Positions 9,001-12,000 of a stretch of 19,879 bases of DNA are shown piece after piece. The stretch lies in IMG/VR virus record IMGVR_UViG_2681813223_000009; one strand, given 5' to 3'. Made by a program: the position numbers. This DNA comes from a virus (taxonomy: Duplodnaviria > Heunggongvirae > Uroviricota > Caudoviricetes). Numbering within the stretch: the stretch's first letter is position 1; the number at the start of each line of letters is the position of its first letter.

Positions 9001-12000
9001 AGCGGCCCGTCAGCCTGAAATGCTGGAACCTCAGAATCAGAAATTGCTGGAGAACGGGTATGCGAATTTTCTCCGTATTCAAAAGGCCAGGGGGGAACAG
9101 GCCAGAGATGAAAGTGCTTCATCTGCATCTCAGTTTATCCGTGGACTGAAACAGAATTACGCCCAGTAATTCACGATATTCCATTAATACCATTTCCTGA
9201 TGCCCGGCCATTGTGCCGGGTTTTTTTATGGAGTCTGTATGGCCTATTCAGAGGAACAGCGTCCTGAGGCGCAACTCGGTAACCAGAATCGTAACAGCCT
9301 GAACATTCAGCAACCCGGCGAAACTGACAGCTATGAAGCATTTTTCTCTGATCCGAATCGCTGGAAGGATAACAGTACGTCGTTCAGCCTGGGCGATGTA
9401 TTGCCAACAATGGGTAAAGGTTTCGCCCAGTCCGTCCGGGGAACAGGGGAAATGGCCCGTGGACTCGGTGATGCGATGATTCAGAGCCCGGTAAAAACAG
9501 GGGCGCGTATTTTAAATGAGTTCAGCCGTATGGGGCTGCCGGGTGTCGCAACTGTGCAGGATATTTTTGCCGGTGGCAGCAGGGGGGCTGATGAGGTCAT
9601 CGATACCCTGCCTGATGGCAAAAACGCGGTTACTGATATTGTCGGTAAAGGTCTGAAGGCAACCGGTAAGGCTGTCAGTGATGGTGCCAAAGCCACTGAT
9701 GAATGGCTGACCGGTAAGATGTCGCCGGGTGCAGTTCGTGCGCTGAATACGCCGATGACCGAAGGCTATAATGATTCTGCGGTCTGGGTGGCGAAGGGTG
9801 TAAACCTGATTGGTGCGCTTGTACCTGATATGGTTGCTGGCGGTGTGGCTAGAAAGGTGGGTGATGTCACACTGCGAAAAATGCTGACCGCCGGGCTGGA
9901 GAAAAAATACATCGCGGCAGGGATGCAGCCGGAAAGAGCCACGGCACTGGCAGCAGAAGCTGTCGATAAAAAAATGCCGGATTTATTCCAGGCGGGCCTG
10001 ATCACCCATTCCACTGTAAGTGCACAGGGGCAGAGTGCAATGGCGGCAGCAGATGCTGTTCTTAATGCTGATTACTCTGAGCTGGCGCAGTCACCGAAAT
10101 TTCAGCAGACGTTTTTGTCCATTGACGCCGACCCGCAGCACGCACAGCTTACTGATCGCCAGAAAATGGATCTGGCAAAAGAGCGTGTTGCCGATGAGGT
10201 GCGCGCGCAGCTGGCAACCGATCCTGAATTGCTGGCTGTGAATGCCATGGCGGCAAAACTGGGTGACGCACAACTGTTTAATCTGGTGACACGAGGCACA
10301 GCGAAGACCGTTAAAAGCGGCATTGTCAGAAATGCCACGGAACAGGGGGCGATTAATGCGGCGCAGGGCGGCTATTCACGCTATCAGGAAAACACGGCAT
10401 TGCGTGAGACCGCCGGAATGGGTGTGTCACCGTGGGAGGGCGTGGCTGACGCAACGATCGAAGGTGCAGCCTTTGGTGCTGCGATGGGGGCTCCATTCGG
10501 TGCGGTTGCCGGATATCGTGGCAGACGTCAGGCCGCAGAAGAAACCGCCATGCGTGATGCTGAAACCGTGCAGCAGGACGACGCAGCCCCGCAACCAGAA
10601 TCTGTTGATCCGGTGGCGCAGCAGCGTGAATCCATGCAGGGCATGAATCGCGAGCAGCTTCTGGAGCAGTATGCTGATGCGGATATGGCAACAGAGGGTG
10701 ACGCATCCGCAGCTCATCGCCGGGAAGCTGCCAGCCAGTTGTTGAATGAACTGGACGAACAGACGAAGCGACAGGCTGTGATGAATGAGCTGAAGGCGAA
10801 GCCGCGTTCTGAACTGCTTGAGGAATACCGCAGACTCAGCCAGAAAGAGGGGCGCACCGAGACTGAAGAACAACAGTTTCAGGCAATACGAGAAGTCATT
10901 CGCCCACAACAGGAAGTGACGCCGGAAGCACAGTCACAGCCTGAAAATGCGGAGGATGGTAACGGGAGCATTTACCCGACGGTGCGGTTCCGGGACCCGA
11001 ATGAAGTCCGCATTGAAATTAACGGGAATGGTGCGTCCAGACCAGCGGAACGCATTGAGAAGGTGCGCCCGGACAACCGTTATTTCACGGATGAGAAAAG
11101 CGCCATGGGGAGTGATGTTTTCCGTAATGCCGCCGCCACCGGCCTGAAACCGTCCGTAGTGAAGAAAGGCGAGAATCAGTATGCCGTTGAAATGGATAAT
11201 CCTGCGTTCTCTGAAGATGTGGCAACGGAAACCATTAACACCCTGGCTGACGGAGAGCGTATTGCTGATGCTGACCCGATGGAGCAGCCCGCGTTCATGC
11301 GTGACCCGCGATTCCGTGGTTTCACGGGGGATGATACGGAGGTACAGGCCCGCCTTGCCCGTGGCAACGCGCCGACGGCAGAGGAGCTTGTACGTTCACA
11401 GATGGCTGAAGGTGATGCCGGTCCGACAGCACAGGAGTTAACTGAGCGTCCACGCCTGCCCGCTCCCGGCGATATTCATCCCGGACAGGGATATCCGTTA
11501 CCGGGAGAAGTGGCGCGTACGCCGGATGAAAATCAGGCCGGACGTGGTGGTCGTTTTACCACAACCGGTGAGGTTAAGGGCCAGAGTTTCCAGAAAGGAC
11601 AAGCTCCGGCACCGGAAAACGCCGCTGGTCGCCAGGGGGAAACACTCGAGGGTGACATGGTTCGTCGTGGTCTGCCGTCACCGGATGCGCAGAACGCGAC
11701 AGCACCGGTACGTGAAGGGCTACCGGCTCCTGACATTGCGCGTAATGTTCGTATGCCTCAGCCTGAATCACTTCCCCGCACTGTACGGGACTCACTGCCT
11801 GAGCTTGCACAGCAGGCAGAAGTACGCCGACAGGCCGGAGGAAATCGTGACATCCCGCAGCCTGAGACAATCGCACCTGAATCTGAAACAACTGTCTCTA
11901 CTGACAGGGAAGCTACCGTGCGCGGAGGTGAAGTCAGGGGCAAAAAAATTGAAGACTTTGGTGAAGAAATTAAGGGCGCGGCAAAACACCGTTATGCACA

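Follow-up and report, generated by a model that had tools for sequence, protein, structure and literature searches.

A predicted Rho-independent terminator at the p71/giant-gene junction of the Stx phage 933W late operon and its probable action on transcription rather than ribosome access

What does a stable hairpin with a run of T residues do when it lies immediately ahead of the start codon of the largest gene of a Stx phage? The question arises in phage 933W, from which a stretch of 19,879 nt was analyzed as a whole (hereafter the window; NC_000924 39826-59704). Within this window, the p71 gene and the giant gene are separated by 69 nt, and the hairpin begins inside this gap, 33 nt past the p71 stop codon (Table 1). 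The initial annotation described the element as a second strong terminator that would control read-through and that could also occlude the ribosome-binding site, leaving the giant gene with lower or conditional expression relative to the four genes upstream. In phage Sp5, tails do not form without either ORF79 or ORF80, the counterparts of p71 and the giant gene (PMC5155283). In the literature on Stx and Sp5 phages, the site at 9202 is not mentioned, and ECs1241, ECs1242, L0133, and L0134 are named in the Sp5 mutagenesis paper and in a CGH study only.

Table 1. Features at and around the p71/giant-gene junction, in window coordinates.
Feature	Position	Strand	Remarks
Terminator-like hairpin after lom	5626..5652 (hairpin 5626-5644)	+	Pattern scan, annotation, fold
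First terminator-like hairpin and T-tract	6485..6510 (hairpin 6485-6504)	+	Abuts the SD and ATG 6527 of p68
p71 (933W ST933Wp71 / L0133; Sp5 ORF79, ECs1241)	7904..9169	+	421 aa; stop TAA 9167-9169; ORF list and annotation
Variable 3' UTR, p71 stop to hairpin	9170..9201	+	Conserved RTTAAT motif, pyrimidine runs; alignments, promoter scan
In-frame ATG, RefSeq start of giant gene	9200..9202	+	Foot of the terminator stem; judged not to be the real start
Predicted terminator hairpin	9202..9221	+	Arms 9202-9208 and 9215-9221, loop 9209-9214 CAUUGU; fold -13.1 kcal/mol
Terminator U7 tract	9221..9227	+	7-9 T in other alleles; 9222-9229 corresponds to about 48,089-48,096 of VT2-Sakai (AP000363.1)
Shine-Dalgarno GGAG of giant gene	9230..9233	+	5 nt before the start codon; RBS annotated in KU238068
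Giant gene (Sp5 ORF80 / ECs1242; 933W L0134)	9239..17620	+	2,793 aa, 8.4 kb; LPD5/LPD38 polyvalent-type protein

The sequence and the pattern scan agree on a stem of seven base pairs (six G-C and one G-U) with a 6-nt loop, followed by U7 (G9202-CCCGGC-9208 / CAUUGU 9209-9214 / G9215-CCGGGU-9221 / T9221-T9227); downstream of the T-run come AU, GGAG at 9230-9233, UCUGU, and ATG 9239-9241. When folded alone, the hairpin reaches -13.1 kcal/mol. A G+C-rich stem (about 5-14 bp, with a loop of 3-8 nt) and an uninterrupted U-tract are the hallmarks of an intrinsic terminator, and both are present here. The element lies in the sense orientation, 3' of a stop codon, and in non-coding DNA (neither ATG 9200 nor its frame is conserved), while the reverse strand at the hairpin carries no T-rich tail. 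A strict scan required a stem of six or more base pairs, five or more of them G-C, a loop of 3-8 nt, and six or more T among the 8 nt that follow. It yielded five hairpins on the + strand of the window, whereas 200 dinucleotide shuffles averaged 0.075 per strand, an excess of approximately 65-fold. By these sequence features, the 9202 element is a predicted Rho-independent terminator. The designation as a second terminator was well founded, as a canonical hairpin with T7 is preceded by the similar hairpin at 6485-6504 that abuts the first of the four upstream genes, and the two hairpins bracket the four-gene block p68-p71. Its placement was correct insofar as the T-run stops 11 nt short of ATG 9239, but there is no overlap with the Shine-Dalgarno (SD) sequence: two bases lie between the T-run and GGAG, and the last stem base sits at -18.

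The RNA of the whole junction (9165-9260) was no more stable than its shuffles (z = -0.8), and a larger structure is therefore unsupported. Rfam returned no match at gathering thresholds for the whole window, and a permissive search of 9050-9350 returned only sub-threshold matches to Hfq-binding sRNAs (17-24 bits versus gathering thresholds of 42-55), which reflect only the hairpin and U-tract.

The same stretch bears on the start of the giant gene, as both RefSeq NP_049532.1 (2806 aa) and phi24B vb_24B_48 begin at ATG 9200. We rejected this start and the 13-residue N-terminal extension that it implies: no SD precedes it, other alleles have ATA or ACG at this codon, and length changes between 9200 and 9239 (a T-run of 7-9 nt and the loss of 1 nt in PA28) break the frame. 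Comparison of the alleles indicates that ATG 9239 is the true start and that the RefSeq start is wrong. ATG 9200 happens to be in frame with the giant gene in 933W, L103, and L106, and one database record reads a 'leader peptide' from the terminator region.

Among Sepvirinae alleles, all of the stem cells are paired (76/76 over 11 distinct alleles). Three of the seven stem pairs vary and all are still paired, including a double change from G-C to A-U; both sides have changed at two stem pairs, and slid controls are paired in only 24-44% of cells. Given that these alleles represent only about three independent lineages, the evidence for stem covariation is modest. The UTR flanking the stem varies freely and is poorly conserved in the same alignment, and TGGAGTCTGTATGGC around the SD is invariant in all Sepvirinae alleles. 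Moreover, all 13 sequence-distinct relatives carry a hairpin with a T-tract at the p71/giant-gene junction, among them Aeromonas and Vibrio phages in which the giant protein is 25%–28% identical. The hairpins comprise at least eight unrelated sequences, lie no more than 160 nt past the p71-like stop (against a background of 0.094 per 160 nt), and are followed by a T-rich tail in every relative examined. A terminator-like hairpin on the + strand, 2.7-3.2 kb before the p71 stop, also recurs in most relatives.

Since ORF79 and ORF80 are essential and the ATG follows the T-tract after no more than 11 nt, read-through of this element should be obligatory: there is no room for a promoter before ATG 9239, and expression of the giant gene would thus depend on polymerase passing the terminator. 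An independent promoter placed further upstream was rejected, as the promoter scan found no sigma-70-like site on the + strand of 6504-9238. The same scan found no promoter-like hexamers in 9100-9201 of 933W, the candidate TTCACG-N17-TTTCCT after the p71 stop was discarded on manual inspection for its non-functional -10, and the 9202 junction resembled the 933W pR' no more than shuffled sequences did (p = 0.58). Late transcription in Stx phages relies on Q antitermination at tR' (PMC7547250). In 933W, Q, pR', and qut are annotated at 20.2-20.7 kb, and the giant gene follows them on the same strand at a distance of 28 kb. Approximately ten other sense-strand terminator-like hairpins occur in the pR' operon, some of them behind the portal, major head, and head-associated genes. 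Published RNA-seq of phi24B gives inductions of 8.3x for p68, 7.0x for p69, 7.3x for p71, and 5.6x for the giant gene, values that are fold changes rather than absolute coverage and of which the last is non-significant (P = 0.31). By strand, position, and co-induction, p71 and the giant gene are part of the Q-antiterminated pR' late unit, and the giant gene is most likely transcribed by Q-modified polymerase from pR'. The nearly equal inductions upstream and downstream in phi24B come close to the equality that, by the initial annotation's own test, would speak against a strong transcript drop at this junction during lytic growth. Induction declines steadily along the operon, from 134x to 5.6x, which also fits cumulative partial termination.

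We consider it probable that the 9202 element is a terminator inside an antiterminated late operon, which Q-modified polymerase passes, at which unmodified polymerase stops, and which leaves ribosome access untouched. The terminator would sit between p71 and the giant gene within the pR' late operon, approximately 37 kb long, of a lambdoid Stx phage. During lytic growth, polymerase modified by Q at pR'/qut would read through, the giant gene would be made together with the other late genes, and the transcript drop across the terminator would be modest at most. Polymerase without the Q modification would halt at 9202 and would not enter the 8.4-kb gene. Such polymerase may derive from spurious or lysogen-active starts in the lom-p71 region or from leakage past upstream terminators; lom is constitutively expressed in phi24B lysogens (PMC4651098). 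The promoter scan predicts no promoter between the 6485 and 9202 terminators, which counts against the stopping of unmodified polymerase there. Transcription of the giant gene would thereby be strictly dependent on antitermination, upstream transcripts would gain a hairpin 3' end, and the SD and AUG would remain free, the action being on transcription. In Vibrio phages, a promoter-like site follows the junction terminator, so the element can also be a plain operon boundary and its role need not hinge on Q.

Terminators inside a late operon have been described in the P22-like phage L, where either partial termination or a block of polymerases lacking the antiterminator was proposed (PMC8022706). 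Those terminators, like the one at 9202, are predicted to be Rho-independent, lie between morphogenetic modules, and belong to a single antiterminated late promoter, and the same roles have been proposed for them. The 933W site differs in its setting, with a tail gene on one side and the 2,793-aa gene of a 933W-type podophage on the other, and in adding covariation and positional conservation, while the roles are proposed in both cases. The tR' terminator of Stx phage, which is the source of StxS (PMC7547250), is likewise a hairpin with a U-tract on the late transcript that is passed by Q-modified polymerase, as we infer for 9202. The tR' of 933W itself (GAACCCGC...GCGGGTTT + T7) has the same build as the 9202 terminator. 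However, tR' lies a few dozen nt from its promoter and serves as a regulatory switch, whereas 9202 is located 28 kb downstream with no adjacent promoter or qut. Juhala and Hendrix reportedly described moron-associated terminators in 2000, in the lom and bor cassettes of lambdoid phages. These resemble 9202 in that a terminator in the late region confines Q-independent transcription, and the lom terminator at 5626-5644 is an example, but p71 and the giant gene are essential for virion assembly rather than accessory genes with their own promoter.

The hairpin also belongs to a recurrent type, as 933W 9203-9227 is an exact instance of CCCGGC-CAYNGY-GCCGGG-T(5+) with the loop CATTGT. The same 23-mer occurs in at least 68 viral contigs and in at least about 35 unrelated contexts, and near-identical hairpins are annotated as 'terminator' in Salmonella phage MG40 and Pseudomonas phage Kopi. 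Among the CCCGGC/GCCGGG hairpin matches listed, the loop is biased toward CAYNG. This recurrent hairpin is not a curated family, and any rough expectation for its chance recurrence shifts strongly with the stem composition assumed. A scan of genome contigs returned two tiny Xanthomonas pisi contigs only, which are probably contamination.

It is possible, if rather unlikely, that the hairpin acts mainly after transcription, as a 3' stabilizer and segment boundary that shields the p68-p71 message from 3' exonucleases following endonucleolytic processing or partial termination. The upstream proteins would then outnumber the giant protein, of which each virion probably needs few copies. Such a role would suit the flanking of the p68-p71 block by hairpins on both sides in most relatives, the similar hairpins after the portal and head genes of the same operon, the extension of positional conservation to relatives with different promoter arrangements, and the slight fall in induction across the junction (7.3x to 5.6x). 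However, U7 would be unnecessary for a pure stabilizer, and the T-rich tail found in every relative examined argues for termination as the selected activity. Stabilization is compatible with a terminator and the two are not exclusive.

A regulatory role beyond termination seems to us improbable, whether the element is taken as a remnant or counterpart of a promoter-proximal unit of late promoter and terminator or as the end of a 3'-UTR small RNA. The first of these rests on phiARM81mr-like phages and L136, in which promoter-like hexamers come after a p71-like stop and precede a first hairpin and the terminator, with the SD and ATG of the giant gene last. The promoter-like motif of phiARM81mr resembles its own late promoter upstream of the holin gene (p about 0.0015); the putative Q of this phage is p41. 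The late region of phiARM81mr holds four copies of the motif, namely three in L144 (against 0.03 expected) and the junction copy in L062, and three of the four precede two hairpins and then a gene. In the after-portal unit, the second hairpin has exactly the stem and loop of 933W 9203-9220. Contrarily, the corresponding 933W stretch (9100-9201) is devoid of promoter-like hexamers, and its junction is unlike its own pR', as noted above. The small RNA is suggested by the weak Hfq-binding matches in Rfam, all of which end at 9227-9229, although their scores stay far below the gathering thresholds and are driven by the hairpin and U-tract. The poor conservation of the UTR upstream of the hairpin also speaks against a regulatory role.

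It is similarly doubtful that the 933W terminator is the surviving half of an ancestral repeated unit, composed of a late promoter and a tR'-like terminator, that reloaded or checked antiterminated polymerase at a number of places along the very long late operon of 933W-type podophages. If this were true, the CCCGGC-CAYNGY-GCCGGG-T(n) class could be a functional module, either recognized by a factor or mobile, rather than an interchangeable terminator, and the 933W copy could keep a regulatory role, for instance as a checkpoint for the 8.4-kb gene or as a 3'-UTR small RNA.

We find it very unlikely that the hairpin is a functionless leftover of a module boundary from mosaic recombination, harmless because Q-modified polymerase ignores it. 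The many unrelated flanking contexts of the exact 23-mer in viral contigs do suggest that such cassettes move or recur, and similarity shifts around the junction in IMGVR_UViG_2531839102_000019, where p71 is 79% identical and the N-terminus of the giant protein 96%. However, stem substitutions preserve pairing while the adjacent UTR varies, and the presence of unrelated hairpins at the same junction in all 13 relatives is hard to explain without selection.

The remaining proposal is that the hairpin or an extension of it masks the SD in full-length mRNA, so that the giant gene is translated less or only conditionally. The SD bases do have low predicted unpaired probabilities (0.02-0.34), because UCC/CCAU runs 5' of the hairpin pair with them diffusely, and among 12 gene starts only one exceeds the 4.1-4.3 kcal/mol predicted for opening this SD. 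However, this value is bracketed by those of other late-gene starts in the window (2.0-4.7 kcal/mol), other alleles show costs between 3.2 and 6.5 without a consistent trend, and the fold of the whole region is, as stated, no more stable than shuffles. Each partner of the SD pairs with a probability of at most 0.35 and the partner bases differ between alleles, compared with more than 0.97 for the terminator stem. The predicted opening cost changes from 4.09 kcal/mol in the wild type to 3.55 when the 5' arm is scrambled and to 5.63 when the hairpin is deleted, a small change in both cases, with no rise in predicted accessibility on deletion in silico. U-rich tracts immediately ahead of an SD usually favor the binding of 30S subunits via protein S1, and the U-tract here sits just 5' of the giant-gene SD. 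Hairpins that sequester ribosome-binding sites, such as the translational operators of RNA phages and many leader RNAs, share with 9202 a stable hairpin near a start site, but they hold the SD or AUG in the stem, whereas in 933W both lie outside it and their predicted accessibility is independent of the hairpin. Occlusion of the ribosome-binding site by the 9202 hairpin is not supported by these models and is highly improbable. What endures of the initial annotation is read-through control, for which terminator features, structural and positional conservation, and the lack of promoter room all speak; giant-gene expression may well be conditional, yet on polymerase passing the terminator and not on masking of the SD.

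The 9202 site is probably an ordinary terminator in an antiterminated late operon, and its practical value for Stx phages is limited. The analysis nonetheless corrects the start codon of the largest gene in this medically important group of phages and maps about ten unannotated candidate terminators in the stx-carrying pR' operon. The work on phage L called the roles of terminators within antiterminated late operons unknown (PMC8022706), and public Term-seq data (strain Sakai, PMC7547250) and RNA-seq data (Sakai, GSE143631; phi24B, PRJEB9491) exist with which insulation, attenuation, and mRNA stabilization could be told apart quickly. With a position conserved across distant phages, two essential neighbors, and the in-frame deletion tools of Sp5, this junction would be a good test case.

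The DNA matches Escherichia phage 933W (NC_000924.1/AF125520, record 39826-59704, + strand) with 100% identity over the test segment, and the region is common to 186 Stx-phage records. In phage Sp5, in-frame deletions have shown that ORF79 and ORF80, the counterparts of p71 and of the giant tail gene, are both essential for tail formation (PMC5155283). The hairpin and T-run between these genes, hereafter the 9202 element, are real and non-random. The pattern scan gives seven pairs, six of them G-C, around a loop of 6, with a folding energy of -13.1 kcal/mol. With a strict filter (6 or more stem bp, 5 or more of the pairs G-C, a loop of 3-8, and 6 or more T in the next 8 bases), 5 terminator-like hairpins occur on the + strand of the window vs 0.075 per strand in 200 dinucleotide shuffles. 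The initial annotation had the T-run ending 11 nt before the ATG, which is exact; its description of the terminator as overlapping the Shine-Dalgarno (SD) sequence was loose, as the T-run ends two bases before GGAG and the stem ends at -18. It was also right to count this terminator as the second, the first (6485-6504) being alike in build and abutting the SD and ATG (6527) of p68.

Coordinates of the junction, of other late-operon hairpins and of related elements in viral relatives
Feature	Locus	Position	Strand	Remark
ST933Wp71 (p71)	window	7904-9169	+	421 aa; ORF79 (ECs1241) in near-identical phage Sp5
Giant gene ST933Wp72	window	ATG 9239	+	Sp5 ORF80 (ECs1242), 2,793 aa
5' arm GCCCGGC	window	9202-9208	+	sequence
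Loop CAUUGU	window	9209-9214	+	sequence
3' arm GCCGGGU	window	9215-9221	+	sequence
Seven T	window	9221-9227	+	sequence
AU, GGAG (SD), five bases, ATG	window	GGAG 9230-9233; ATG 9239	+	sequence
Late-operon terminator-like hairpins	L060 (933W 20000-39999)	3061-3084, 13431-13454, 15834-15851, 16274-16292	sense	
Late-operon terminator-like hairpins	window	364-386, 5626-5644, 6133-6160	sense	
Upstream terminator-like hairpin	window	6485-6510		also L062, L103, L106, L114, L125, L130, L136, L140, L141
Hexamer and hairpin junction	L062 (phiARM81mr-like)	3709-3843		also L123, L125, L131, L133, L137, L140, L141
Hexamer and hairpin junction	L136	4402-4544		
Late-promoter-like motif copies	L144 (phiARM81mr)	23778-23890, 30130-30250, 39052-39092	+	intergenic gaps
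Late-promoter-like motif copy	L062	3712-3843	+	intergenic gap

The start of the giant gene has been annotated in two ways. In RefSeq NP_049532.1 (2,806 aa) and phi24B vb_24B_48 the start is ATG 9200, a codon that sits at the base of the terminator stem and lacks an SD. ATG 9239, preceded by GGAG, was chosen in the Sp5 paper and by other annotators. The intervening segment, 9200-9238, corresponds to 49025-49063 of the 933W record (phi24B counterpart 49148 in HM208303), and the phi24B record predicts a 'putative leader peptide' from the 13 residues upstream of ATG 9239. When Sepvirinae alleles are aligned, ATG 9200 becomes ATA or ACG, the T-run varies between 7, 8 and 9, and the 3' stem arm of PA28 carries a 1-nt deletion; unlike ATG 9200, TGGAGTCTGTATGGC is unchanged in all of them. 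Since ATG 9200 is lost and the T-run and arm change in length, 9200-9238 is non-coding. This allele comparison rules out ATG 9200 and upholds the initial choice of 9239 (2,793 aa), and the 13 'leader peptide' residues are spurious.

The structure of the hairpin is conserved among the same alleles. The 57 junctions collected from phage records and IMG/VR contigs represent 12 different sequences, and the alignment comprises 11 of these. Three stem alleles occur (GCCCGGC/GCCGGGU, ACCCGGU/GCCGGGU, and GCCCGAC/GUCGGGC), and standard pairing is found in all 76 of the 76 cells of the seven stem pairs. Three pairs vary; in one of them both partners are replaced (G-C to A-U), and the closing pair occurs as G-U, A-U or G-C depending on the allele. 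When the 3' partner was slid by 1-3 columns as a control, only 24-44% of cells were paired, and the 32 nt from the p71 stop to the stem are far more variable than the stem itself. This covariation, in which about three lineages are involved, is supportive of a conserved structure, not proof of it. Separately, every enterobacterial allele retains a short RTTAAT motif (window 9183-9188) 11-14 nt before the hairpin, although the UTR around it varies, with homologous positions in loci L003, L004, L103, and L106; as a -10 element it is implausible, having no A at position 2.

The position is conserved much further afield. With the N-terminus of the giant protein as query, tblastn detected distant syntenic modules (25-28% identity) in Aeromonas phage phiARM81mr and Vibrio phages, with the same block of small genes upstream of the giant gene, and a profile of p71-like proteins yielded 80 viral loci. 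In 13 of the 13 sequence-distinct representatives, the 160 nt downstream of the p71-like stop contain a hairpin (-10 to -23 kcal/mol) with a T-rich tail. Over the rest of the + strand in those loci, the same detector gives 0.094 per 160 nt, and at least 8 of the junction hairpins are mutually unrelated in sequence. Loci L103 and L106 at first seemed to have none, but both possess a homologous hairpin, GCCCGG...CCGGGC, with TGGAG and ATGGCATAT after it. For most relatives, 22-30 nt separate the end of the tail from an SD and ATG; the Vibrio group has a promoter-like site interposed between the terminator and the giant gene. A second recurrent terminator position is found 2.7-3.2 kb upstream of the p71-like stop, before the p68-like gene, so the p68-p71 block is bracketed by terminators in most relatives.

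Three side observations can be added. In Vibrio phage D96a, whose block is otherwise syntenic, an opposite-strand HNH endonuclease gene lies between the p70-like and p71-like genes (L061 1196-1987). In the 88-kb record of phage GER2, an attR adjoining the first terminator is annotated between the p67 and p68 homologues (L006 696-707; MG710528.1 69100-69111); this may point to an insertion there or to a record of composite origin. Two Xanthomonas pisi DSM 18956 contigs of 801 and 376 bp (L010 and L011; NZ_JPLE01000183.1 and NZ_JPLE01000269.1) code for partial copies of the Stx-phage giant protein, at 94-95% identity, and are most likely assembly contamination by E. coli phage DNA.

The hairpin sequence itself also recurs. 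The second hairpin of the unit after the portal gene of phiARM81mr, ACCCGGCCATTGTGCCGGGTTTTTT (L144 30209-30236), is identical in stem and loop to 933W 9203-9220, its counterpart being CCCGGC CATTGT GCCGGG with the T-run (window 9202-9229). The exact 23-mer CCCGGCCATTGTGCCGGGTTTTT is present in 68 viral contigs of IMG/VR (loci L145-L212), where its flanking sequences fall into about 35 unrelated contexts. When any loop was allowed (CCCGGC-N6-GCCGGG-T5), at least 120 stretches matched, and those listed represent 70 independent contexts (loci L213 and above, with L145 and L146). Among the matches listed, the six loop positions are biased (C 93%, A 69%, C/T 90%, any, G 83%, and mostly C/T), and the commonest flanking bases are AAA upstream and T-A-T-T-G-C-C 3' of the T-run. 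The records of Salmonella phage MG40 and Pseudomonas phage Kopi label hairpins of nearly the same sequence 'terminator'. The CCCGGC-N6-GCCGGG hairpin is a recurrent phage terminator type, whose recurrence and biased loop may reflect descent, mobility or a functional preference.

Late transcription in Stx phages is under Q antitermination control at tR' (PMC7547250). The 933W annotation places Q, pR', and qut at 20.2-20.7 kb, and from there through the end of the giant gene (57.4 kb) all features except bor lie on one strand. About ten more sense-strand terminator-like hairpins occur in this pR' operon: at tR', before stx and after it (3' of stxB), directly 3' of portal, major head, and p55, after lom and p67, and at other sites; apart from those near pR' and stx, the 933W record leaves them unannotated. 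The 9202 element thus has several counterparts in the operon. The 11 nt from its T-run to ATG 9239 are too short for a promoter, and a promoter scan found none on the + strand between 6504 and 9238. Because ORF80 is essential and a promoter has neither space nor a match upstream, polymerase must read through the 9202 element, and Q-modified polymerase would be the simplest agent; in lambda, the Q-modified complex ignores successive terminators. PMC8191782 gives a summary of processive antitermination. In the same operon, the lom-p67 gap (5603-6031, 430 nt) has no annotated gene and is flanked by strong - strand terminator-like hairpins (6135-6158 and 5984-6007, 10 pairs each), 6133-6160 scoring as terminator-like on both strands; the gap may hold an unannotated - strand small gene or RNA.

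Published expression data fit such read-through. In phi24B lysogens treated with norfloxacin, induction was 8.3-fold for vb_24B_44 (p68), 7.0-fold for vb_24B_45 (p69), 7.3-fold for vb_24B_47 (p71), and 5.6-fold (P = 0.31) for vb_24B_48 (giant gene) (Table S4 of PMC4651098), with no large step at the p71/giant junction; these values are ratios and do not measure termination efficiency. Mapped on phi24B (L143), fold induction falls steadily with distance from pR', from 134x for S through 75x for the small terminase subunit and 30x for portal to 22x and 15.5x for vb_24B_39/40 and on to 7-8x for p68-p71 and 5.6x for the giant gene (PMC4651098), a gradient that fits either early sampling or cumulative loss at many internal terminators. 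At the 9202 element, the fold inductions are consistent with read-through with at most mild attenuation.

Promoter-like hexamers do occur at this junction in some relatives. phiARM81mr has a lambdoid gene order (int, xis, CI, Cro, O, P, NinB, holin, terminase), and Aeromonas phiARM81mr-like phages carry promoter-like hexamers (TTGCCT-17-TAGCAT) directly 3' of the p71-like stop; L136, from one other lineage, has TTGGCG-17-TATAAT at the same junction (10/12 matches). Hexamers, first hairpin, terminator, and giant gene SD and ATG follow the stop in that order, resembling a promoter-proximal terminated leader such as pR'-tR'. The phiARM81mr junction motif also resembles the phage's own late promoter region upstream of holin (p ~0.0015 vs shuffles). 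Its core CRGCGTTASNAT occurs 3 times in the first 44 kb of phiARM81mr (one copy ahead of holin, one following the portal gene, and one preceding p62) vs 0.03 expected, with a fourth copy before the giant gene in L062, and three of the four promoter-like units have two hairpins before the next gene. This suggests that several antitermination-type or activator-dependent late units replace a single pR' in phiARM81mr. The 933W junction has no such promoter, and its similarity to the 933W pR' is not above shuffles (p = 0.58).

The initial proposal that the hairpin masks the ribosome-binding site finds no support in the folding predictions. The SD lies outside the stem, which is predicted to be self-contained (pairing probability >0.97), and its bases pair diffusely with several alternative upstream UCC/CCAU runs, each at 0.35 or less. 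The predicted cost of opening the SD, 4.1-4.3 kcal/mol, is within the range of other late-gene starts in the window (2.0-4.7) and hardly depends on the hairpin: scrambling the 5' arm gives 3.6 kcal/mol, and deleting the whole hairpin gives 5.6. Across alleles the cost varies without pattern (3.2-6.5), the partner bases of the SD are not conserved, and the 96-nt junction RNA is no more stable than shuffles. U-rich leaders tend to promote 30S binding through protein S1, so the neighbouring U-tract would be more likely to help initiation than to hinder it.

Taken together, the 9202 element is best read as an ordinary intrinsic terminator in a Q-antiterminated late operon. The report on the P22-like phage L describes predicted terminators inside a single-promoter late operon, which its authors propose either terminate partially or halt spurious transcription that lacks antitermination (PMC8022706), and the 933W element is a further example of the same kind. 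What the present analysis adds is that the 933W element is conserved in structure and position, that polymerase must read through it to reach an essential gene of 8.4 kb, and that a role in translation is rejected. The element probably acts as a gate to transcription of the giant tail gene, or reduces it mildly, and would give the upstream mRNA a hairpin end.
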